Positions 3,310 through 56,240 of a DNA stretch of 64,000 nt are shown here, in pieces. The first letter of the stretch is position 1. Each line of letters starts with the position of its first letter. Under the pieces are notes generated by a model. It did no database searches and was not told where the DNA came from. It saw only the letters and a list, made by a program, of their open reading frames with translations. The translations under genes and the position numbers were made by a program. The stretch is from a virus: positions 1-64,000 of the IMG/VR virus record IMGVR_UViG_3300034198_004780, one strand, 5' to 3'.

Positions 3310-3348
3310 TATAAATAAAGATGTGACATCACATCAAGTTTATTTATA
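3310..3348. promoter_or_regulatory. Pair of T4-type late promoters (TATAAATA on + at 3310-3317 and on - at 3348-3341) with an intervening palindrome
   Basis: Exact T4 late consensus on both strands between divergent structural genes. GATGTGA-CA-TCACATC at 3320-3335. Confidence 0.8.
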
Positions 3349-47364: not shown

Positions 47365-47847
47365 CTAGTCCTTGCTTACAGAGTTAAGTATCGAACGCAT
47401 TTCTAATTCGGTCTTAAATGGGCCTTGAAATGGATAGCGTTCCAGTGTAATCAGTTTGGGACAAAATGATTTAACCCAACCTTTACGGAATTTAATTACA
47501 TAATACCCAGCACAATACAAGCTCTTGCTCTTTGAGCTTTTGGCATAAATTGGCAACTTTTTCTTAACGTTCCATAGTGGACTAAACGCTCGTCCGTTCA
47601 TTGGAAAACCATAAATGTCTTGAGAAGTTATAGTTGGCCGTGTTGTCTTTTCTTTTTTAATAGCATCTTCTGTGATAGTGATGCCGAATCGTTCTTTAAT
47701 TTCTGTAAGATCACCTACTTCAATTTTTTGACCTCGACAAAGAACGCTGTAGCCTTTTTTCTCTTTGCTAAGAGTGCCAACTTTTTCACCATCGGTCTCT
47801 AGAATCCAAAATTTATTTGGAATTAATACTTTGGCAGTTGTTATCAT
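47365..47847 (-). CDS. Hypothetical protein
   Basis: 160 aa, basic; ATGA overlap with the RNase H gene. Confidence 0.7.
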   Translation of the reverse strand: MITTAKVLIPNKFWILETDGEKVGTLSKEKKGYSVLCRGQKIEVGDLTEIKERFGITITEDAIKKEKTTRPTITSQDIYGFPMNGRAFSPLWNVKKKLPIYAKSSKSKSLYCAGYYVIKFRKGWVKSFCPKLITLERYPFQGPFKTELEMRSILNSVSKD

Positions 47848-48836
47848 TTATGATACCTCGCATTTAATGGATCTGAATAACTCTGTGCCTGTTCACTTAC
47901 CTTAATCAAATCGTAGGTAGCACAGAATTTAATAAGTCTAATACCCACTTGACTGATATTCTTTTCTTTAGCAATTTCTGCTTTAATAGTATCTTCAATC
48001 CACATTTTTGGTTCTGCTGGATGTGCCTTAAGATCGCATAAGGTAACATTGCGAGCGTAGTCATCTAACACACGATGCTCTTTACCTTCATGATCGGTCC
48101 AACGCTGCAGCATCATGTTATTCCATGCCCAGCCTTTAGTGTTGCGATCAGCATAGGCCTCTTGCAATCCTACTTTGTTTTTTGTGCCTTTTGTGCGGAC
48201 ACCCGGATACGCTGAGAAGACGTTATCGCTAGTATCCCCTCGCATGCATTTTTCAAAGAGAAGCCATTCAGGATCCGGCGCTGGTTTTTCTTCATTAGTT
48301 TTTTTATCTTTAACTCTTTTGCCTTTTTCATCAAAGTACCCTTCGTGTGTAGTAGTAACTCCAGTAACGCCATTATACTGTTTTACGTTAGGTGCAATAA
48401 GTTGTGCAAAGTCGCCATCTGTACTAATGATAACATGATTGTCATCGGGATGTGCAGCAACCCAACCTGCAATTAGATCATCTGCTTCTAGATTAGCGTG
48501 TTGTAGAACTGTACAGTTTGTCTTTTCGTGTATGTAATCTTTAAAATCATCAAAGGTTTCCCAAAAGATTTTATCTTCTTCTGCATCTCTAGGACTCAGC
48601 GCATCACGAGCAACTTGTCGATTACGCTTGTATGGCTCGTAGTAATCCTTACGCCATGAGCGCCCCTCTAAACAAAAGATCACATGACTACCGTCAAAGT
48701 CTTTCCACGCTTTGCGTACAGAGTTTAGAATTACATGTAGACTCATTCCTACCTTTTCGCTAATGTCGCCACGTACTACATGACGAGCTCTAAAAAAAAC
48801 ATTTGCAGTATCGATTAATAAGTAAGTTTTATTCAT
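47844..48836 (-). CDS. RNase H / 5'-3' flap exonuclease (T4 Rnh-like)
   Basis: LLIDTAN, SWRK..Y..YK.NR, EADD.IA, STDGDF.QL, GDTSDNV. Confidence 0.92.
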   Translation of the reverse strand: MNKTYLLIDTANVFFRARHVVRGDISEKVGMSLHVILNSVRKAWKDFDGSHVIFCLEGRSWRKDYYEPYKRNRQVARDALSPRDAEEDKIFWETFDDFKDYIHEKTNCTVLQHANLEADDLIAGWVAAHPDDNHVIISTDGDFAQLIAPNVKQYNGVTGVTTTHEGYFDEKGKRVKDKKTNEEKPAPDPEWLLFEKCMRGDTSDNVFSAYPGVRTKGTKNKVGLQEAYADRNTKGWAWNNMMLQRWTDHEGKEHRVLDDYARNVTLCDLKAHPAEPKMWIEDTIKAEIAKEKNISQVGIRLIKFCATYDLIKVSEQAQSYSDPLNARYHK

Positions 48837-48842
48837 TCTTTT

Positions 48843-48871
48843 ATTGTACTAGATTTCTCAAATAATGTCAA
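48843..48871 (-). promoter_or_regulatory. Sigma70-type promoter, probably giving a leaderless RNase H mRNA
   Basis: TTGACA-17 nt-TACAAT, with the -10 box 6 nt from the ATG at 48836. Confidence 0.65.
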
Positions 48872-48952
48872 TAACATTGATAAATAAAGGTGCCCCTCGC
48901 GATACTCGAAATATCCAGGAGCTCTAACAGTTAAAAGGAACTATCAGCAATG
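48867..48952 (+). repeat. Conserved endonuclease leader, copy 1 (outward -35, TAAATA late promoter, structured 5' UTR)
   Basis: Near-identical to 53251-53336. Confidence 0.9.
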
Positions 48953-49552
48953 ACTATTTACACCCTCTACATAAAGACCCATAATAAAACCGGTCTTAAA
49001 TACCTTGGTCAAACTACATCAAAAGATCCACACAAATATCCTGGATCTGGATTATATTGGAAAGCTCATTTGAATAAACATGGATATGATTATAACACGG
49101 AAATCCTACACGAATGCCAATCTAAAGAAGAATTAAAAGAACGAGGTTTATATTACAGTAATCTTTGGAATATAGTAGAAAGTAATAACTGGGCTAATCT
49201 TAAAGAAGAACAAGGCGACGGTGGTAGGCAAAGTGAAGCAGTTAGAAAACGAATTAGTGAAACAGGCAAAGGTAGAATACCTTGGAACAAAGGCAAACAA
49301 ATATGGTCCGAAGAAGAAAAGATCAAAATCGGAGAACGCAATAAAGCACGTGGACCGCAATCTGCAGAAACTATTGCTAAACGTGTAGAAAAAACTACAG
49401 GTAAAAAAAGAACTGATGAACAAAAACAGCGATCTTCTGATGCACAAAAAGGAAGAGAATTAACTGAAGAGCACAAGGCTAAATTAAAAGCGGCGGCACA
49501 AAATAGAATTGCACCGCCGTGGAACAAGGGACTTAAAAAAAAGTCTAGCTAA
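48950..49552 (+). CDS. Free-standing GIY-YIG (Seg-like) homing endonuclease with NUMOD3 repeats
   Basis: TIYTLY.KTH.KTGLKYLG, YPGSG..W..HL.KHG, WANL; PWNKG and SE....KIS repeats. Inverted relative to the operon. Confidence 0.88.
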   Translation: MTIYTLYIKTHNKTGLKYLGQTTSKDPHKYPGSGLYWKAHLNKHGYDYNTEILHECQSKEELKERGLYYSNLWNIVESNNWANLKEEQGDGGRQSEAVRKRISETGKGRIPWNKGKQIWSEEEKIKIGERNKARGPQSAETIAKRVEKTTGKKRTDEQKQRSSDAQKGRELTEEHKAKLKAAAQNRIAPPWNKGLKKKSS

Positions 49553-49922
49553 TCTCTGACTTTCCGTTAGGCAATTTGTTTACATTAATATAACCCGAAC
49601 CTCTACGATCCATTCCGGGTACGTTTTCTTCACTGCCTACTTCACGACATAAATCACTAAACCACTGATCTACAAGTTCTTCATCTGTAGTGCCAGTGTA
49701 TCCATTGTTTCTTAACATCGACACAAAATACTCATTCCAGTCAAGTTCAAAAAAGCCATTCTTTGGATTTTCTGGATTTACGTGAGTTTGTAAAACGGTT
49801 ACCCACGGCTCCTTATTGGCAGTTGCTGCCGTCTTCGGATCTGCTGGACTAGCGTCTACTCGATACTTTTCAGCTTCTTTTGTTTTTTTTGACTTGAACA
49901 AGTCTTTAATTTTTTCTAACAT
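49545..49922 (-). CDS. Hypothetical protein
   Basis: EPWV.V...NP..GFFELDWN. Confidence 0.7.
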   Translation of the reverse strand: MLEKIKDLFKSKKTKEAEKYRVDASPADPKTAATANKEPWVTVLQTHVNPENPKNGFFELDWNEYFVSMLRNNGYTGTTDEELVDQWFSDLCREVGSEENVPGMDRRGSGYINVNKLPNGKSEIS

Positions 49923-50152
49923 ATCTTACCTTTTATTATTGCTACCAAAAATTCTTCTTTAGTCAACCAGTAATTTTCAAAAACTGGTGTACCTGGTCCT
50001 GTCCAAACAGCTTCACCATGATACCCCAATTTTAACCAAATCCAGCAACCACTTATTAAACAGCGATGCGGCCACCATGCAAATGTTAATCGCCATTGTG
50101 CTTTTCTAAAAAAAGCATCATACCAATCTCTTGTTTCAAATGGGATCGGCAT
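49916..50152 (-). CDS. Hypothetical Trp-rich protein
   Basis: Likely start MPIPF at 50152; FAWWPHRC..SG..IWL. Confidence 0.6.
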   Translation of the reverse strand: MPIPFETRDWYDAFFRKAQWRLTFAWWPHRCLISGCWIWLKLGYHGEAVWTGPGTPVFENYWLTKEEFLVAIIKGKIC

Positions 50153-50153
50153 A

Positions 50154-50417
50154 TTATATCCAACTAGCCGCTCTAGCAATTCCAACTAATCCAACTAAAA
50201 TCCAAAATGCGTTTAATAATGTATAAGCCGCATCTTTTTTCAAGGTAGCACAATATGTTAATAATATTGCATCTATGGTATTAAACACCCACACAAACAT
50301 AAATGGACTATCTGGTCCTAACCAAGATACTAAGCTAAAACTAATGATACGCATAACAACCCCAATCATTTCAAATTGAGGGATATGCGTATTAATATAA
50401 TTTAAAACAAATTTCAT
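50154..50417 (-). CDS. Small integral membrane protein
   Basis: About three hydrophobic segments in 87 aa. Confidence 0.65.
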   Translation of the reverse strand: MKFVLNYINTHIPQFEMIGVVMRIISFSLVSWLGPDSPFMFVWVFNTIDAILLTYCATLKKDAAYTLLNAFWILVGLVGIARAASWI

Positions 50418-51290
50418 TTAAGTTCCCCACTCATTCTTGAAAAGCGGCACCTGAAGCCTATCACTATATCTTAGGCCATTTTTCATAGCTATCAACGCCA
50501 CTGCCTTATTATTCAGAGCGTATACACTTTCAACGCCTCCGACCGGCATTAAGTAGACATGACCTGTAAATCCAGCGGCACGATATTCACTTGCGGCTTT
50601 AAGAGCATAATCACAATCTTCTTCAGTAGCAATAACAAATTTAAGATAGGTAGTACCTACTTGTTCATACTCACATACAACTTCTGGGCGAATAGCTTCT
50701 TCCCACTTTTCACCACTGCAAGGAAGTTTAGCACTGACACTAAATGTAATCTCACGATCAATGCCATAAGCGTTGCGCCATTTAGTTAGATAGTCTTTAA
50801 ATTCTGGAGTTAGCTTTTGAGTACCATTTGTTTCAAAAGTAATCTCTTTTAATCCCTTCATTTTAAGATTGTCAAGCAGGTCTGGATAAGCACGTTGCCA
50901 GCCTAGCAAAGGTTCACCGCCTGTAATAACCAAATGTTCATCTAACCATTCATTGTGCGGTAGAATTTCCATAATGCGATCTGCAAGTTCATTTGAACTT
51001 TCTTTAATAACAAATTTTTTAAATTCGGGATATATAGAACTATAACTATCGCATCCAGTTTTTGCCAACGGTAAATCTTTAAATGTTTTATATTGATCAA
51101 TATTTTTAATAAACTCAACAACTTCTGGATTATGCGTTTCGTCAACACCGAGAATGTCTTTTTCGTATCTTCCAAAATTTTTACAACGGAAGTTGCAACC
51201 AAACATACGAAGGAACACACTCGGGACACCCATATATCGACCTTCTCCTTGTATGCTGTAAAATAGCTCTGTATAATGTAATTTTGACAT
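50418..51290 (-). CDS. queE: 7-carboxy-7-deazaguanine synthase (radical SAM)
   Basis: ELFYSIQGEG...G.PSVFLR.FGCNF.C...CDS, ITGGEPLL, ETNGT, VS.K. Clusters with folE. Confidence 0.88.
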   Translation of the reverse strand: MSKLHYTELFYSIQGEGRYMGVPSVFLRMFGCNFRCKNFGRYEKDILGVDETHNPEVVEFIKNIDQYKTFKDLPLAKTGCDSYSSIYPEFKKFVIKESSNELADRIMEILPHNEWLDEHLVITGGEPLLGWQRAYPDLLDNLKMKGLKEITFETNGTQKLTPEFKDYLTKWRNAYGIDREITFSVSAKLPCSGEKWEEAIRPEVVCEYEQVGTTYLKFVIATEEDCDYALKAASEYRAAGFTGHVYLMPVGGVESVYALNNKAVALIAMKNGLRYSDRLQVPLFKNEWGT

Positions 51291-52076
51291 TCAAATCCTT
51301 TTTTGTTTAATGATACCATAATCTTCAAACGTCTTTCCAATATACGGAAAAAAATCTTTATGAAAATAGCAAAATCGTTTAGTTATTATAGCATTATTAT
51401 CTAACACAGTCAATGTATTTTTAGTAAATGTTGGATACAATTTTAACAAATCATCGCTGTTTTCACAAAACCCTAACGGTGTTTTATATGAATACTTCGA
51501 TGCGGCTAAACTCCTACTTCGTAATCCCTGTTTTACTTTTCTTGGCCGTTTGCTTGCGGCCTGTTTTTTAAGTTTGGTTTCTTTTGAGTCTTTTCTATTT
51601 TTGGCCAACGCTTCATATAAAATTCCATTATACATGTCAAATAATTTTTTAGGAATTCTTTTAACTTCGTTCGTATATAGGTGTTTTGCTACTACTGTAT
51701 TTTTGCTATAATTACTAACAACCTTTGCGTGTTCCTCTCTAATATAAGCATAAACCCTGCTGGTAATTTTATAATCACGTTGAACATCACCGGTTGTTGA
51801 ATACACCATTTTGTGTAACGCTTTAATCATTTTAGGACTGTTAGTTGCCCTTGCCAATAACAGATGAGCAATATAGTGTTGTCTAGCACCTAATTTAATA
51901 AGATTGTTTTTATTGTTGGTACCATTAAAAGAACGAGGAATGATATGATGATTTTCAATGTAACCATCAAATTTAATATTTTTATAATAGTTGATAAATT
52001 TTAGATAGCGTTCTATGATGTATTCTTTGGGAAGAATAGAATTTTTGAGAAGGTATTGTTTAATGTCATCAGACAT
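51291..52076 (-). CDS. Free-standing HNH homing endonuclease
   Basis: ENHHIIPRSFNGTNNKNNLIKL..RQHYIAHLLL. AT-rich. Real start is the ATG at 52076 after GGAG. Confidence 0.85.
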   Translation of the reverse strand: MSDDIKQYLLKNSILPKEYIIERYLKFINYYKNIKFDGYIENHHIIPRSFNGTNNKNNLIKLGARQHYIAHLLLARATNSPKMIKALHKMVYSTTGDVQRDYKITSRVYAYIREEHAKVVSNYSKNTVVAKHLYTNEVKRIPKKLFDMYNGILYEALAKNRKDSKETKLKKQAASKRPRKVKQGLRSRSLAASKYSYKTPLGFCENSDDLLKLYPTFTKNTLTVLDNNAIITKRFCYFHKDFFPYIGKTFEDYGIIKQKRI

Positions 52077-52080
52077 ATAA

Positions 52081-52161
52081 GATACTCCAGTAAAGTAATA
52101 AGGGGCTATCTGCGTTACTGGCACAGAAGGAGGATCAGTCCGTTCACCCAATATTATTTAT
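52081..52161 (-). promoter_or_regulatory. Late promoter plus pseudoknotted 5' UTR of the HNH gene
   Basis: TAAATA, then a multi-stem RNA whose loop CCAGUAA is complementary to UUACUGG overlapping the SD. Confidence 0.65.
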
Positions 52162-52358
52162 TATTCTGCCCTTCCGCTAGTGCATGAATCACTCCACGTA
52201 TCTGCCGCTTGTTTTTGATACTGCGCCAAATCCCATTTATCCTTAGCCGCTTTGTAGGCATCTTCAGTTAATCCATGCCAACCGCAACAATCACCTGTGG
52301 GGCTACGGCCACAACCACAAGATCCAATCTTACCATTTTCATTTGCTCTAACCTGCAT
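52161..52358 (-). CDS. CDGSH-type iron-sulfur/zinc-finger protein
   Basis: CGCGRSPTGDCCGWH matches the C.C..S...P.CDG.H pattern. Confidence 0.7.
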   Translation of the reverse strand: MQVRANENGKIGSCGCGRSPTGDCCGWHGLTEDAYKAAKDKWDLAQYQKQAADTWSDSCTSGRAE

Positions 52359-52750
52359 TATTTTTCACCTTTTAAGCTGTCCATAATTACTCTGCGTTCT
52401 TTATTATACACTTGTTTTTGAAGAAAAGCAACAAACTCGTCGTGTTCCATTTTCTCTGCTTTATTTAGAATATTTTGGCAAGCCCGCAAATAATACCTAC
52501 GACGAGCGGCTTTGGTAACACCTTTTTCATTTTCTACCGTAAATTGAAAAGTTCGAACCAACGCCTCTGCTGCCTCACTGGGTTTACCGTGCCATTCCAC
52601 GTCACCGTCATTGGTAATAATTAGTACTTCTTTATTTCCAGATGTAGTAAATGTAATTGCATTTTTAGCAGGAGCAAGATTACCAATAGTTATTCCAGAA
52701 TTGGCCCAGTTATATCCAGATCCTGCTCCGCTTAATGTATATGCCGGCAA
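52358..52750 (-). CDS. Hypothetical protein (start uncertain)
   Basis: The track's ORF (to 53038) overlaps the HIT gene by 233 nt. An in-frame TTG at 52750 is a more plausible start. Confidence 0.5.
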   Translation of the reverse strand: MPAYTLSGAGSGYNWANSGITIGNLAPAKNAITFTTSGNKEVLIITNDGDVEWHGKPSEAAEALVRTFQFTVENEKGVTKAARRRYYLRACQNILNKAEKMEHDEFVAFLQKQVYNKERRVIMDSLKGEK

Positions 52751-52805
52751 CGATGATATAGTTGTTCCTACTGCTCCAGTGCTGCACCAAGTAAACTCTA
52801 TAGGT

Positions 52806-53213
52806 TTAATCTGCTCGATAGTTCGGCGATTTATAGTTTCCCTTCCCCGGGATCGTATTGCGGACACCACCAATCGGATCTTCAACATCACCCTTTCTGC
52901 GAGGGATAAGATGGATATGGGGCCATCCAACAGTTTGACCAGCAGTTTCGCCTTGATTAAGTCCAACATTGAAACCGTCCCATTCTCCGGCCGCCACCAT
53001 TCTTTTACCTTCTCTAACAGCATCTTCAAATGCATCATTTAACAACTCCATTGAATTATATTTAGGTACGAATAATAAATGTCCAGGGGTACAGGGATAT
53101 TTGTCATAATACACTACAACATGAAAATCTTCACGAAACACATTATCCCACGGTGCGCTACTTTCCTCTAGCGTATCTGGACCGTCAAATATCTTATTGT
53201 TCATTTTGTCCAC
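52806..53213 (-). CDS. HIT-family nucleotide hydrolase
   Basis: D.YP.TPGHLL.VPK, GFNVG.N.G..AGQTV..PHIHLIPR. Confidence 0.92.
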   Translation of the reverse strand: MDKMNNKIFDGPDTLEESSAPWDNVFREDFHVVVYYDKYPCTPGHLLFVPKYNSMELLNDAFEDAVREGKRMVAAGEWDGFNVGLNQGETAGQTVGWPHIHLIPRRKGDVEDPIGGVRNTIPGKGNYKSPNYRAD

Positions 53214-53250
53214 CTTAATTTACTTTATTATTACATAGAACTAAAAACAA

Positions 53251-53336
53251 GTCAAATATATTGATAAATAAAAGTGCCCCTCGCGATGCGCCAACATCCA
53301 GGAGCTCTAACAGTTTATAAGGAACTATCAGCAATG
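53251..53336 (+). repeat. Conserved endonuclease leader, copy 2
   Basis: Near-identical to 48867-48952, with a compensatory change in one hairpin. Confidence 0.9.
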
Positions 53337-54065
53337 ACTATTTACAACCTCTATGTAAAGACCCATAATAAAACCGGTCTTAAATATCTCGGACAAACTA
53401 CCAAAAAAGATCCCCATAAGTATCCCGGTTCGGGAAAGTATTGGACAGCTCATTTAAACAAGCATGGTTATGATTATACTACAGAAGTTCTTCACGAGTG
53501 TCAATCTAAAGAGGAATTAAAAGAACAAGGATTGCATTACAGCAATATTTGGAATGTTGTAGAAAGTGCCGAATGGGCCAACCTAAAACCTGAAAGCGGC
53601 GACGGTGGTGACATGTCTATGTGTAAATCTTTTATTGAGGGAATTAAAAATAGAAAGATGCCATCGAGAAAAGGTATACCAAGGACTAAAGAGACTTGTG
53701 CTAATATAAGCAAGGCAAAAAAAGGTAAAATGCCAAAAAATCTAGATTTATTTACCCAATCATCAACAGATACCATATGGTATCATAATCCAATTACTGG
53801 AGAACACAGTAGGATTAAACAAGGTAATATTGCTCCTCGAGGATTTATAAAAGGAAACATTCGAGGTTCAAAAAGTAATACCGATAATCCACGCAACCCT
53901 ACTCCGGTACGTTGTGTTGAACTTTCTATGGATTTTCCTACCCTTAAATCAGCCGCTCAGTTTGCTAATCTAAAATGTCCGAGAGATATTGTTGATTCTA
54001 TAATAGGTCGAAATCAAAGAAAAACCGCCGGAGGATACCATTGGCAGTTTTTATCTAAAGATTAA
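53334..54065 (+). CDS. Free-standing GIY-YIG homing endonuclease (NUMOD3 plus NUMOD1-like HTH)
   Basis: Start ATG at 53334. N-terminal ~88 aa nearly identical to the 48950 gene; C-terminus F..LK.AA...KTAGGY.W. Confidence 0.88.
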   Translation: MTIYNLYVKTHNKTGLKYLGQTTKKDPHKYPGSGKYWTAHLNKHGYDYTTEVLHECQSKEELKEQGLHYSNIWNVVESAEWANLKPESGDGGDMSMCKSFIEGIKNRKMPSRKGIPRTKETCANISKAKKGKMPKNLDLFTQSSTDTIWYHNPITGEHSRIKQGNIAPRGFIKGNIRGSKSNTDNPRNPTPVRCVELSMDFPTLKSAAQFANLKCPRDIVDSIIGRNQRKTAGGYHWQFLSKD

Positions 54066-54617
54066 TTATTTCATCCAGAAGTTTTCATAAGGGAAGTCGA
54101 CCCAGACATCATCCTCAGCTTTATTAACTTCAATGCCCCAGTAGTCCATTTTAACATCGCACTTGCTGGCAAGATTATCTACAACTACTGCAAAACGTAC
54201 ATTGTTATTCCAAATGTTATTCCAACGCGGATCTGACGGTAAACAACCACTGCGCCAATCTTCCATAATCCAATTAAGTGTGGCGCCACTGTCGTTGATG
54301 TCATCTACTATGAGAATATTTTTGCCTCTCGTGCTACGTGGAGTATCACCGTCGTAGGTGTCACCGGTATATCCAAACGCATCTTCCGCCATCCAAAGAT
54401 TGCTTTCTGGCCCAAGTTCAGAGGCATTATCTCGTAGACTAACACCCAAAGCAAACATAGGTACATTGAAATAATGACTGATCATAACAGCAGGCAATAA
54501 CCCACCACGGGTAAGACCTACTACATAGTCGGGACGCCATTCGCTGACGGCAATATCTCTACAGATTTTACCCATTTGAAATTGAAACTCTTGCCAACTG
54601 ATTTTATTTTTGTTCAT
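54066..54617 (-). CDS. Type I purine phosphoribosyltransferase (Gpt/Hpt-like)
   Basis: VVGLTRGGLLPA, PRPP loop ILIVDDINDSGATL, WV.FP.E. Confidence 0.9.
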   Translation of the reverse strand: MNKNKISWQEFQFQMGKICRDIAVSEWRPDYVVGLTRGGLLPAVMISHYFNVPMFALGVSLRDNASELGPESNLWMAEDAFGYTGDTYDGDTPRSTRGKNILIVDDINDSGATLNWIMEDWRSGCLPSDPRWNNIWNNNVRFAVVVDNLASKCDVKMDYWGIEVNKAEDDVWVDFPYENFWMK

Positions 54618-55089
54618 TTTTGCTCTTTCGCATTTTCATATAATATTCGTTTTGAATCCATATGTTGTTTACTAGAAAGCCCCAATCACGCACTTTCTTA
54701 AATGGCATAAACAAGGTCCAGGCCGTAACACCTGGTTTTAATTCAATACGATGATAGCTGTTGGGACTGCATATACGGAAGTGTCCAGGGCCTCTCCATT
54801 TTTGTACTTCGCAGGTCATTTCGCCCATTTCATTAAAGAACGGAATCCACTCCCAATATCCGCCACGCAAAATTAGTGTACAGTATCCCCATGGATGATC
54901 ATGAGGGGTTTCCTCGTCGCTTTTATGAAATCGATGAAGGAAAATATTAAACAAAAATTTATTCCTATTTTTAAGAAATAAGTAATATCTAGTCAAGTAT
55001 AGCTCGTTATCTACTCTATCATATATTAAATTCTTACGACCCAATATTATCATAAATTTATCAAATAGCTTAAATAATTTTTTTATCAT
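54604..55089 (-). CDS. Cupin-fold protein
   Basis: LH.F..SD...PHDHPW.....L.GGY.E...HRIEL. Start uncertain. Confidence 0.7.
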   Translation of the reverse strand: MIKKLFKLFDKFMIILGRKNLIYDRVDNELYLTRYYLFLKNRNKFLFNIFLHRFHKSDEETPHDHPWGYCTLILRGGYWEWIPFFNEMGEMTCEVQKWRGPGHFRICSPNSYHRIELKPGVTAWTLFMPFKKVRDWGFLVNNIWIQNEYYMKMRKSKNEQK

Positions 55090-56017
55090 TAAATTCATTT
55101 TCCCAAATGGTTACCAATTTAAACCCTAAATTTTTTAATATCTCTTCTCGTTTTATAGTGTTATTATACAACGTTCCAAACGATAAATCAACTGATGAAT
55201 TAATCATTTTAGAATCAAATATATTTGGATTTCCGTGCCAGTAATCTCCATAAAATTCATATATAGTATTTGTTTTAGGATCATACCCATCTACAACAAA
55301 GTATCCTACATCATATCGAATTTCGTGTTCTCTCATAAATTCTATATCAAATGAATCTAACCACTGTTGAGATATAGGACTTACTGACGTGCCGGCACAT
55401 AGTTTACACCCAGACCCCTGAATATGGTCTCTTGGCGCCTGTTTAAATACTCCGTGCTCTTTACAAATAATTTCTACTTGGTTAATAAGTGTTTTGTAAT
55501 CCACTAAAGAATAATCGTATCTATCATTATGGATGATCTTAGATCTTTTTACAAACTCATCAGTACCTAATCTTTTCTTGTTTGAAATTTTATCTTTTTT
55601 ACATAAAGGACATCCTTGCCCTCTTATAATATGGTATGCTGTATTGTTAAACACAGTATTGTGTACTTTACATAAAACGGTTAATCTACTACCGGTATTA
55701 TAAAATACTGATGATAAAAAATCAAATTTATCACCAAATTTTTTAAAACATTTAAGTTTTAAATCTTCAATATCTTGAATTAAAATTTTTGAAGATTTTT
55801 CTTTTTTTCTTTGTAACCCACATTTAGGACAACCTGCAGATAAGTGATCGTAATGATGTTGTAAAAATTTTCCATGTATCGGACAAATTATAGTAACCTT
55901 ACCATTAATTTTATTACAAATATCAAGTGTTGCATAATCATACTTGTTTCCGTGTTTTAGTTTATATTTTTCTAACAACTCTTCTTTGCTATATGCTTTC
56001 ATACTGATGATCTCCAC
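55070..56017 (-). CDS. Putative homing endonuclease: DUF723-like Zn-finger repeats plus C-terminal Vsr/PD-(D/E)XK nuclease
   Basis: Three C..HG.F.....H..G.GC..C repeats; VDGYD...IYEFYGDYWHG...IWE. Very AT-rich. TAAATA upstream. Confidence 0.8.
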   Translation of the reverse strand: MEIISMKAYSKEELLEKYKLKHGNKYDYATLDICNKINGKVTIICPIHGKFLQHHYDHLSAGCPKCGLQRKKEKSSKILIQDIEDLKLKCFKKFGDKFDFLSSVFYNTGSRLTVLCKVHNTVFNNTAYHIIRGQGCPLCKKDKISNKKRLGTDEFVKRSKIIHNDRYDYSLVDYKTLINQVEIICKEHGVFKQAPRDHIQGSGCKLCAGTSVSPISQQWLDSFDIEFMREHEIRYDVGYFVVDGYDPKTNTIYEFYGDYWHGNPNIFDSKMINSSVDLSFGTLYNNTIKREEILKNLGFKLVTIWENEFNDKKII

Positions 56018-56030
56018 ATCTATCGTTTAT

Positions 56031-56240
56031 TTATGTAGATTGTCTATCAATATCATCTTGACTCCTTGCTATATCATACATTAGTTTAAATTGTTCCCAG
56101 CTATGATGTAATGCTGGGTATTTTTCACACATACGACCTAGACGGATTGAATCAATTTTATAAGTAGTCATCCAACTGTGTTGTCTGTCTAATTTTAAAT
56201 CTGAGGCAATTTTTGCCAATTCATCTACAACGCTTTTCAT
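56031..56240 (-). CDS. Hypothetical protein
   Basis: MCEKYPAL...WEQFK..Y; ATGA coupling. Confidence 0.6.
   Translation of the reverse strand: MKSVVDELAKIASDLKLDRQHSWMTTYKIDSIRLGRMCEKYPALHHSWEQFKLMYDIARSQDDIDRQST

Follow-up and report, generated by a model that had tools for sequence, protein, structure and literature searches.

A conserved 5' hairpin element in two phage homing endonuclease cassettes and its possible role in antisense control

Two homing endonuclease genes of an uncultured large phage are headed by nearly the same short stretch of DNA, with promoter-like motifs at its edges and hairpins between them, which raises the question of what a mobile nuclease gene gains from such a leader and on which strand the leader acts. 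The window analysed here comprises 64,000 nt, positions 1 to 64,000 of IMG/VR record IMGVR_UViG_3300034198_004780. The original prediction, made from these letters, described a self-contained mobile GIY-YIG cassette with an outward -35 element, a late promoter and a structured mRNA leader.

Two precise insertions and their shared module

Comparison with relatives that have empty sites shows that both + strand genes are precise insertions, and defines both ends of each cassette.

48837..49544, + strand: cassette 1, inserted DNA (empty sites in relatives)
53220..54065, + strand: cassette 2, inserted DNA (empty site in L266)
48950..49552, + strand: HEG1, 200 aa, divergent GIY-YIG-like N-terminal domain plus NUMOD3 (PHROG 314, NUMOD3)
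53334..54065, + strand: HEG2, 243 aa, N-terminal family of HEG1 with an unrelated C-terminal part (alignment, PHROG)
48843..48871, - strand: outward sigma70-like promoter of cassette 1, TTGACA-17-TACAAT (scan match 11/12)
53227..53255, - strand: outward sigma70-like promoter of cassette 2, TTGACT-17-AATAAT with TG (scan match 10/12)

In 45 of the 77 relatives that hold both genes, the ATG of the flap endonuclease gene is adjoined or overlapped by the stop of a p125 homologue (for example AGTTAATGACC in L189); in the window 708 nt separate this ATG (48836) from the stop (49545-7), the insertion of cassette 1 having split a translationally coupled gene pair. At the second site, L266 joins ...AAATAA directly to ATTAAGGTGG, two sequences that lie 846 nt apart in the window, and its flanking proteins are 89% identical. 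The mobile, self-contained nature of the cassettes is thus borne out, as are the overlapping or abutting stops: HEG1 ends (stop 49550-49552) 8 nt inside the convergent gene 49545..49922, and the HEG2 stop (54063-54065) abuts that of gene 54066..54617.

The predicted common module of about 85 nt is real as well, with 73 of 84 aligned columns identical between 48867-48949 and 53251-53333. The window has exactly two matches to its core pattern (0 of 100 shuffles), and these are the only two copies in the whole 88,726-nt record. The two leaders are 87-89% identical, while adjacent third codon positions differ at 35 of 95 sites; we argue that the leader is probably under selection at the nucleotide level.

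HEG1 matches PHROG 314 ('homing endonuclease', E 1.6e-15), and 14 of the 44 members of its N-terminal family give weak SegE_GIY-YIG matches. The N-terminal domains of the two proteins share 84 of 117 residues (72% at the amino acid and 78% at the nucleotide level), so that 'nearly identical', as they were first described, is too strong, but the C-terminal parts cannot be aligned, in keeping with a swappable DNA-binding part.

Both outward promoters are complete and lie at the left end, wholly within the insert, which confirms the earlier reading of GTCAA as an outward-facing -35 element. That of cassette 1 faces the flap endonuclease gene (47844..48836), with 30 nt, or about the distance to the predicted start site, between GTCAA and the end of the insert; that of cassette 2 faces a HIT-family gene (ATG 53204) whose ribosome-binding site, ATTAAGGTGG, begins directly at the insert end.

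The leader element and the strand of its fold

Each module contains two hairpins, P1-P2 being listed for either strand.

48892..48922, no strand assigned: hairpin P1-P2 of cassette 1, GCCCCT-CGC-GATA..TATC-C-AGGAGC (folds, family covariation)
53276..53305, no strand assigned: hairpin P1-P2 of cassette 2 (folds)
48925..48946, - strand: hairpin P3' of cassette 1 (fold)
53308..53330, - strand: hairpin P3' of cassette 2 (antisense fold)

The element is widespread. A pattern scan matched at least 120 IMG/VR stretches, and a covariance model gave 148 copies (164 sources, 1.29 Mb of IMG/VR contigs), always ahead of homing endonucleases in those contigs; the same model found 0 copies in 80 close-relative loci (467,578 nt) fetched via the flap endonuclease. 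Pairing reaches 94.4% and 95.1% of cells in two sense alignments; shuffles reach 81.8% and 83.6% (0/500), and sliding the partners leaves at most 48%. The alignments of this study were fitted to the models, and most of the copies come from a pattern with fixed P1. P1 occurs in at least 10 different sequences, and neither the sequence nor the length of P2 and the two loops is constrained. Sequence conservation is seen in the internal loop (CGC opposite C), the linkers and the motifs CAGC and TCTAA(C/T). No match was found in Rfam, and we found no description of the element in Rfam, GenBank phages or the literature searched. The idea of a conserved, undescribed RNA element travelling with the nuclease is supported.

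The element is not, as first thought, peculiar to GIY-YIG enzymes. Clustering the N-terminal parts of the 110 complete downstream ORFs gave ten groups (44/31/13/9/7/2/1/1/1/1), with annotations as homing endonucleases of GIY-YIG-like, HNH, HNH_3 and DUF7487/TnsA-like type. Such breadth speaks against control of the gene by its own protein. Different nuclease families even have their first codons (MxIY, MYL, MIFI) in common at the nucleotide level.

Which strand, then, does the fold belong to? On the - strand, P1-P2 of cassette 1 is followed by CCUUUAUUUAUC in a terminator-like arrangement, though a simple terminator scan did not flag this hairpin and U-tract, and its C.A mismatch in the sense fold becomes a U.G pair. 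The - strand form of P3' in cassette 1 has 8 pairs (UGAUAGUU/AACUGUUA), its + strand counterpart only 4 (AGTT/AACT), across the Shine-Dalgarno (SD) sequence. The copy in cassette 1 folds at -17.4 kcal/mol (z -1.49) antisense and -7.0 (z +0.49) sense, that in cassette 2 at -18.7 (z -1.70) and -10.5 (z about -0.4), respectively; the sense folds of both are no better than shuffles, with z +0.66 and -0.44 in a separate test. The family follows the same pattern: the mean energy of the P3 region is -6.9 kcal/mol antisense but -2.6 sense, the antisense fold is the better one in 131 of 133 copies, the mean z against shuffles is -2.64 versus -0.44, and 77% versus 7% of copies fall below -1.5. In an antisense alignment of 111 copies (A7) pairing is found in 98.1% of the terminator helix and in 440 of 444 cells of the outer four P3' pairs, while the same 7-pair helix is 73.4% paired in the sense alignment, where one pair forms in 1 of 75. 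Positions 0-6 of the helix contain, in sense notation, 207 A.C cells and 3 G.U cells; in the extended helix 128 of 132 copies have A.C at one sense pair, and 55 have C.A at others. At the bridging pair, T occurs only with A (8/32 vs 0/113, p 3e-6). For P1-P2 by itself the two strands do not differ in stability (-10.0 vs -10.4 kcal/mol, 60:60, p 0.15), so the strand signal resides only in P3, the bridging pair and rare P1 variants.

Because the opposite-strand fold is significantly better, the covarying element is probably not a structure of the mRNA. The first description was right in its details, in that GATA/TATC versus GATG/CATC is truly compensatory within GCCCCT/AGGAGC and the AGTT/AACT hairpin exists, but the sense fold has a C.A mismatch in its outer stem and energies no better than those of shuffles. 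The cis-acting mRNA element proposed at first, with ligand sensing, self-cleavage or binding by its own nuclease as its mode of action, could draw on the conserved internal loop and linkers and on the lack of a match among known families. We nevertheless regard it as very improbable: the element is common to unrelated nuclease families and unrelated DNA-binding domains, P2 and the loops are free to vary, the fold prefers the other strand, and there is neither a multi-helix junction nor pocket-like conservation. Two simple hairpins with variable loops are what is present, and nothing points to a riboswitch or ribozyme.

We give equally little credence to a role at the DNA level, as a single-stranded hairpin or homology patch for recombination that shuffles the 5' module among endonuclease genes. 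One module does head about ten nuclease families with shared first codons, and composite promoter-early/stem-loop motifs (PeSLs) have been proposed as exchange points (PMC2839356, PMC4122927). That said, the compensatory changes and the G.U/A.C asymmetry indicate a selected, folded single strand and not mere homology, and recombination alone has no need of the fixed-distance promoter boxes described next.

Late boxes facing both ways

The late box of T4 spans -13 to -6 (PMC1524935). The record contains 17 copies of ATAAATA, 16 of them no more than 90 nt upstream of an ORF start on the same strand (expected fraction 0.04, p 6e-22), a placement consistent with the prediction that TAAATA is a late promoter.

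48879..48886, + strand: forward late box of cassette 1, GATAAATA, predicted +1 at 48892 (ATAAATA placement, T4 box geometry)
53263..53270, + strand: forward late box of cassette 2, GATAAATA, predicted +1 at 53276 (same basis)
48955..48961, - strand: inverted late box of cassette 1 (reverse complement GTAAATA), in HEG1 codons 2-4
53339..53345, - strand: inverted late box of cassette 2 (reverse complement GTAAATA; box pattern)
48878..48949, - strand: predicted antisense RNA of cassette 1, about 70 nt, ends placed by box geometry and fold
53262..53333, - strand: predicted antisense RNA of cassette 2, about 70 nt, ends placed likewise

The original claim that the whole structure lies downstream of the promoter missed half of the architecture, and is incomplete because of the second, inverted box in codons 2-4. 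Its sense form, TATTTA, stands 8-10 nt past CAGC in 118 of 130 leaders (the other 12 lack it at the usual place) and is kept in three reading frames, at offsets of 5, 3 and 4 from the ATG in 86, 18 and 9 copies. Whichever way a box faces, a G follows it after a 5-nt spacer; for the forward box, this spacer precedes the P1 core G in 108 of 125 family members. Inverted boxes are preceded by A in 69% and by G in 25% of cases, forward boxes by A in 83% and by G in 4%; the GTAAATA of the window copies is thus a minority form, which counts against an antisense reading. Hairpin and box occur together in a protein-similarity sample, where 16 have both, 4 the box alone, 0 the hairpin alone and 26 neither (p 5e-9).

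Could the sense leader account for these features? A 5'-terminal P1-P2 might protect the late mRNA from 5'-end-dependent decay, P3 might partly mask the SD and lower translation, and TATTTA might be an A/U-rich translation-initiation element. In 108 of 125 copies P1 begins at the predicted +1, P1-P2 is as stable on the sense strand as on the other, the SD G's could form apical U.G pairs (93 cells), and hairpins at the ribosome-binding site are known to control T-even endonucleases (PMC2988022). This explanation seems unlikely to us, as sense P3 folds no better than shuffles, the A.C and C.A cells spoil the extended helix, and neither the conservation of CAGC and TCTAA(C/T) nor the constant distance from CAGC to TATTTA over three reading frames is explained.

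Since the fold is best on the opposite strand, we favor a small antisense RNA, probably one restraining the nuclease: a cis-antisense RNA of about 70 nt, of the IS10 RNA-OUT/IS200 art200 type, ending at a hairpin and U-tract that overlap the forward late promoter. We hold this reading to have about an even chance of being correct. The first ~130 nt of each insert would then be a two-way control module. Inward, the T4-type box GATAAATA would start the nuclease mRNA at the first base of P1-P2; outward, the box in codons 2-4 would start an RNA antisense to the whole 5' UTR, with a 5' hairpin, P3', of 7-8 bp whose loop presents an anti-SD CCUU. This RNA would stop at the P1-P2 hairpin, the U-tract of which is the forward late box read on the opposite strand, and by pairing with the mRNA leader it may mask the ribosome-binding site and keep nuclease synthesis low, much as RNA-OUT acts on IS10 and art200 on IS200. 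Past the hairpin, the outward sigma70-like promoter would re-start the host gene that the insertion had cut from its operon. The antisense RNA could also be longer, because a hairpin with a U-rich tail need not stop transcription: at 3310-3348 two native TATAAATA boxes face each other across a hairpin and apparently drive two real genes.

The arrangement might instead insulate the cassette with no regulatory RNA at all, the hairpin and U-tract halting antisense transcription through the nuclease gene as a PeSL-like terminator-promoter unit, and the outward sigma70 promoter and inverted late box re-promoting the downstream host gene. The upstream neighbor is divergent at 84 of 116 cassettes and both neighbors are opposed at 57 of 98; the - strand of both window cassettes reads hairpin, U-tract, TTGACA-17-TAnnnT; GTCAA lies within 30 nt of the late box in 28 of 124 copies elsewhere, 23 of 24 with a known neighbor being divergent (p 0.004); and cassette 1 did break a coupled gene pair. 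Yet the inverted box is kept equally beside divergent and co-oriented neighbors (80/84 vs 29/32, p 0.39), and the stability of P3' is likewise independent of the neighbor's direction; both would therefore serve the cassette, not the neighbor. A plain terminator has no role for P3', the nearby sigma70 box is present in only 23 of 84 divergent cases, and a strong terminator already stands at the far end of HEG1:

49491..49519, - strand: terminator-like hairpin on the host-gene strand, in the 3' coding end of HEG1 (hairpin scan)

This 11-pair stem, with 7 GC pairs and followed by CTTTTAATTT, sits 26 nt past the stop of 49545..49922, so that little host transcription should reach the leader. We consider the insulator reading improbable.

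Relation to known systems

In IS10/Tn10, a promoter on the opposite strand within the 5' end of the transposase gene yields a short folded RNA, RNA-OUT, that blocks translation initiation on RNA-IN. IS200 combines antisense control of tnpA by art200 with mRNA secondary structure (PMC4513863). The cassettes resemble both in having an opposite-strand promoter motif inside the 5' end of a mobile element's nuclease or transposase gene and a short, stably folded RNA, here predicted, complementary to the 5' UTR and ribosome-binding site; no sequence similarity is claimed. What differs from IS10 and IS200 is that the module sits on a phage homing endonuclease, has phage late-type boxes for both promoters, with the terminator U-tract of one forming the other, and is portable between nuclease families that are not related.

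Among T-even phages, I-TevI, I-TevII, I-TevIII, segB and Aeh1 mobE are controlled by a late promoter and a hairpin at the ribosome-binding site, and seg43(25) has a hairpin upstream of that site (PMC2988022). The cassettes share the late TATAAATA-type promoter directly upstream of the ORF and RNA hairpins around the ribosome-binding site, in genes whose T-even expression is described there as tightly restrained. In T4, however, late transcripts start inside the inhibitory hairpin and so escape it (PMC2988022), whereas here both hairpins lie downstream of the late box and fold better on the other strand. The same account lists seven T4 cassettes without a promoter, and segD in antisense orientation with no promoter found (PMC2988022); the cassettes described here, in contrast, are self-promoted and mostly inserted antisense.

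PeSLs of T4-like phages (PMC2839356, PMC4122927) are likewise small, conserved, portable, intergenic units of terminator and sigma70 promoter tied to modular shuffling, an order matched on the host strand of both window cassettes. As those papers present them, they are generic intergenic repeats of hyperplastic regions, while the present module occurs only at endonuclease starts, with 0 hits in 468 kb of relatives, carries late boxes, and has a nearby sigma70 box in just the 28 of 124 copies. CfrI of the T4-like cyanophage S-PM2 (Millard et al. 2010) also runs opposite a homing endonuclease gene: it is an antisense RNA of ~225 nt, co-expressed with that gene and of unknown function according to a review (PMC2984593). 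It connects this gene with psbA, and the review, in contrast to what we predict for the cassette RNA, does not present it as a portable 5' module.

Two antisense cassettes and their ends

Among the selfish elements of large phages, homing endonucleases are the principal ones. The window belongs to an 88.7-kb IMG/VR virus record, 25% complete by the CheckV estimate. Most genes are on the - strand, and two cassettes are inserted antisense to their host genes. Each holds one homing endonuclease gene (HEG).

Endonuclease genes of the two cassettes
48950-49552, + strand: HEG1, in cassette 1; 200 aa; PHROG 314 'homing endonuclease', E 1.6e-15
53334-54065, + strand: HEG2, in cassette 2; 243 aa; PHROG 314 'homing endonuclease', E 6e-15

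The original prediction described nearly identical nuclease domains joined to differing C-termini. The C-terminal parts are indeed unrelated, with no similarity beyond the first ~117 residues, but the identity over that common N-terminal part is only 72%. NUMOD3 is found in HEG1 and is absent from HEG2, and nuclease activity is predicted from sequence. A Pfam search of both products gave no GIY-YIG match. Among 44 N-terminal relatives, 14 had sub-threshold SegE_GIY-YIG matches (best 4e-4) and six had GIY-YIG matches (best 7e-4); TIGR01453 reached E 0.039, under its cut-off, and PDB sequence searches with the nuclease domain matched nothing meaningful.

Comparison with empty sites, which had been proposed as the way to define the cassette ends, bounded both inserts to the base, using relatives fetched through the flanking host genes. 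Cassette 1 is flanked by the p125 gene (49545..49922) and a flap endonuclease gene (47844..48836). In 45 of the 77 relatives holding both genes, the p125 homologue ends in TAATG, its stop overlapping the flap endonuclease start; in the window, 708 nt (48837-49544) separate the two. For cassette 2, the closest relative (flanking proteins 89% identical) reads AAATAA followed directly by ATTAAGGTGG, and 846 nt (53220-54065) stand between exactly these two sequences in the window. Each cassette is polymorphic for presence or absence, at one exact point between conserved host genes. The junction upstream of the flap endonuclease is also a recurrent insertion point, and in 22 of the 77 relatives it holds a co-oriented ordinary gene of 620-800 nt, of several kinds, from which the leader described below is absent (loci L223, L228, L230, L233-L243, L251-L256 and L259-L263).

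The left end of each insert contains a complete outward sigma70-like promoter, TTGACA-17-TACAAT (11/12) in cassette 1 and TTGACT-17-AATAAT (10/12) in cassette 2. Since the promoter is complete within the insert, and the insert boundary, 30 or 31 nt past GTCAA, falls at about its predicted start site, the idea that the element re-promotes the operon it interrupts is supported. Elsewhere, GTCAA lies no more than 30 nt from the late box in 28 of 124 distinct leaders, 25 of which have a -10 box at 16-18 nt scoring at least 4/6. A divergent neighbour accompanies 23 of the 24 GTCAA leaders of known orientation, against 61 of 91 leaders without GTCAA (p = 0.004). This makes the outward promoter optional in the cassette and dependent on context. 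At the other end of cassette 1, the 3' coding end of HEG1 includes a strong terminator-like hairpin for the host strand (49491-49519). A different sigma70-like sequence, TTTACA-17-CATAAT (10/12), occurs within the first codons of HEG1 and HEG2 (48957-48985 and 53341-53369, + strand), where it overlaps an inverted late box and may only reflect conservation of the coding sequence.

Distribution and specificity of the leader

Both genes are headed by a leader of about 85 nt that runs from GTCAA to the ATG and comprises a hairpin, P1-P2, and a second hairpin, P3, on the side of the Shine-Dalgarno sequence (SD). The two window copies are identical in 73 of 84 aligned columns. Codons 1-95 of HEG1 and HEG2 have 78% nucleotide identity, and 35 of their 57 differences are at third positions; by this comparison, the leader is under stronger nucleotide-level constraint than adjacent silent sites. 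The core leader pattern has two matches in the window, against none in shuffled sequence, and the whole record has only two leader copies, both at endonuclease genes.

The leader is widespread. Protein-based retrieval gave 63 loci, about one third with the same leader, and the pattern of the commonest P1 matched at least 120 IMG/VR stretches. A sense covariance model (R1) built from 18 leaders, a search of the kind proposed in the original prediction, identified 148 copies in 164 sources (1.29 Mb in all). Every inspected copy has a late box before the leader and an ORF after it. The 110 complete downstream ORFs form ten N-terminal clusters, annotated as several kinds of GIY-YIG-like, HNH, HNH_3 and DUF7487/TnsA-like endonucleases. 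If a single portable module heads endonuclease genes from many unrelated families, it would add a new regulatory layer for this class of element; to our knowledge, each control described so far (T4 late promoters, RBS hairpins, I-TevI autorepression) is specific to its gene.

A pure insulator of the PeSL type is one rival reading of the leader, judged unlikely. PeSL is a generic intergenic repeat of its phage genome, and the leader module differs in this respect: R1 had 0 matches in 467,578 nt of close relatives fetched via a non-endonuclease gene, and both record copies are at endonucleases. A generic repeat was accordingly rejected. The first reading of the leader, as a riboswitch, ribozyme or autoregulatory RNA, is a further rival, judged very unlikely. 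An Rfam 15 covariance-model search of eight loci, including both window copies, gave the leader no family match with an E-value of 1 or less. The PreQ1 riboswitch has a weak match at L025:5314-5359 (- strand; 25.4 bits against a gathering score of 39, E 0.38), most likely by chance. No description of the module was found in Rfam or in the papers searched. PMC10690425 catalogues more than ten thousand candidate structured RNAs of viruses; an endonuclease-associated motif is not named in the main text, and the supplements might hold one.

Neither the region nor a consensus-type leader had a match among GenBank phage records. Genome contigs gave 14 pattern matches, which led to six model-confirmed copies, all on MAG contigs (L347, L357, L350, L353, L351 and L359) binned as Haliscomenobacter (two), Mucilaginibacter, Bacteroidetes, Bacteroides and Terrimicrobiaceae; these are either mis-binned phage DNA or a hint at hosts. 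Two contigs depart from the usual ATG: at L019:3001 and L022:3001, which are close relatives, the leader is intact and the endonuclease ORF starts with ATT in one and TTG in the other. At L076:728-801, a leader hairpin and late box stand without a recognisable SD, CAGC or downstream ORF, possibly the remnant of a lost endonuclease gene.

The window also carries other endonuclease genes. A third homing endonuclease, of the HNH type (51291-52161, - strand; PHROG 655, E 3e-34), runs in the direction of the host genes. It is served by a AATAAATA box of its own and by a longer, different leader that ends in an SD hairpin, TACT..GGAGTA, and R1 gave no match to it. A fourth, endonuclease-like gene (DUF723, PHROG 559; 55070-56034, - strand) has an upstream CATAAATA box and a hairpin, GATG-TGGAGAT-CATC, with the SD in its loop.

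The strand of the conserved fold

Covariation in the leader is strong. In two sense alignments, which were fitted to the model, 94-95% of cells are paired, against 82-84% in shuffles (0/500) and at most 48% when partners are slid, and both-side changes occur in 14 and 11 of 16 pairs. The P1 helix is kept across at least 10 different P1 sequences. Most copies were collected with a fixed P1. The search pattern has no bearing on covariation in P2 and P3, and for P1 the covariation comes from the minority of copies that the model identified.

Folding energies point to the opposite strand. In the window copies, sense folds are no better than shuffles; antisense folds reach -17.4 and -18.7 kcal/mol (z -1.5 and -1.7), and the SD-side hairpin extends from 4 pairs in sense to 8 in antisense through G.U pairs. 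For 133 distinct leaders, mean energies are -6.9 kcal/mol antisense against -2.6 sense in the P3 region (antisense favoured in 131) and -15.8 against -12.2 for the full UTR (antisense favoured in 118). Composition is not the cause of this preference, since the mean z relative to shuffles is -2.64 antisense and -0.44 sense. P1-P2 alone has no strand difference in energy across leaders and was set aside as an uninformative strand test.

The pairing counts agree. At the outer seven helix positions, sense notation gives 207 A.C cells and 3 G.U cells, and at the bridging pair T occurs only opposite A. An antisense covariance model (R2, 111 copies) has its putative terminator helix 98.1% paired and the four outer pairs of P3', the antisense form of P3, paired in 440 of 444 cells; the same seven pairs on the sense alignment are 73.4% paired, with one pair formed in 1 of 75. 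Given these energies, z-scores, base asymmetries and pairing counts, the selected fold, at least for P3 and the helix junction, is that of the strand opposite the gene, which also accounts for the conservation of TCTAA(C/T) and (A)TCAGC, otherwise hard to understand. The conserved structure is probably not one of the mRNA. Rival readings are a sense-only leader, stabilising the mRNA and occluding the SD, which is judged unlikely, and a recombination patch at the DNA level, judged very unlikely. More generally, when a covarying 'leader' is identified only from sequence, its structure may be that of the opposite strand.

Late boxes and a predicted antisense RNA

ATAAATA occurs 17 times in the record, 16 of them no more than 90 nt upstream of a same-strand ORF start. 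In T4 the late box spans -13 to -6; its Aeh1 variant reads CTAAATA (PMC1524935). The cassette's putative late box, GATAAATA, 5 nt before P1, fits a T4-type (gp55) TATAAATA-like box at -13 to -6 upstream of genes. In 108 of 125 leaders, five bases lie between TAAATA and the first G of P1, so late mRNA should begin with this hairpin.

A second box lies inside the coding sequence. In 118 of 130 leaders the ATG is followed by TATTTA, the reverse complement of the late box, which lies 8-10 nt past CAGC and is read in three frames (MxIY, MYL, MIFI); relatives without hairpins have the same residues in other codons. As with the forward box, five bases intervene between the inverted box and a G, here the one that complements the final C of CAGC. 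The preceding base is A in 69% of inverted boxes, against 83% for the forward box, and the window copies have the minority form GTAAATA. In the protein-retrieved sample, hairpin and box occur together in 16 cases, hairpin only in 0, box only in 4 and neither in 26 (p = 5e-9), the four box-only cases being codon chance. A candidate opposite-strand promoter is thus present, as a motif, in the 5' end of the gene it would control. As a promoter for the neighbouring gene the inverted box is disfavoured: unlike the sigma70 box, it and P3' are kept equally beside divergent and co-oriented neighbours. Also rejected was an I-TevI-like arrangement in which read-through transcripts would form a long-range helix from the forward box (ATAAATA) and TATTTAT. 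Pairing would be limited to the invariant hexamers; there is no covariation in the bases beside them, where a forward C is never matched by G.

Read from the inverted box, the leader would form a small antisense gene: late box, two-base 5' tail, 7-8 bp hairpin with an anti-SD loop, linker, P1-P2 hairpin and a U-tract formed by the forward late box read in reverse complement. Across the leader family, P1-P2 is followed by (A)CUUUUAUUUAU, which a simple terminator scan did not flag. The predicted RNA, of about 70 nt, would be complementary to the entire 5' UTR and would have the stable, conserved fold typical of cis-antisense control. In the window it would extend on the - strand from ~48949 to ~48878 in cassette 1 and from ~53333 to ~53262 in cassette 2. 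IS10 RNA-OUT has this layout, a small antisense RNA over the transposase 5' region. So does IS200 art200, which blocks initiation of transposase translation (PMC4513863). We give even odds to the leader making a cis-antisense RNA of this type. The minority box form in the window copies, the terminator scan and the native box pair described below are weak points of this reading. I-TevI-type control differs, in that its late start lies inside the RBS-sequestering hairpin and late mRNA escapes, whereas the cassette box is upstream of both hairpins.

Such a module would supply its own late promoter, probably an antisense repressor and sometimes an outward promoter repairing the interrupted operon, and would explain low-cost antisense insertion between translationally coupled host genes. 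It is compact (about 130 nt) and, with the empty sites fixing its parts to the nucleotide, directly testable with reporters. P1, the linkers and often P3 are nearly identical among one genome's cassettes (87-89% here) and across nuclease families, so the antisense RNA might also act in trans, the cassettes of one phage sharing an antisense pool that caps total nuclease load; we regard this extension as unlikely. If true, competing homing endonucleases would be under copy-number control, or would police one another, through a portable module passed to new endonuclease genes by recombination.

A native analogue of the cassette geometry lies at 3310-3348, where two face-to-face TATAAATA boxes (+ strand 3310-3317, - strand 3348-3341) surround the palindrome GATGTG-ACAT-CACATC. 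Each is 43 or 60 nt upstream of a divergent ORF, with overlapping 5' UTRs. This pair seems to drive two real genes, its hairpin apparently being read through, so read-through of the cassette hairpin is possible as well.
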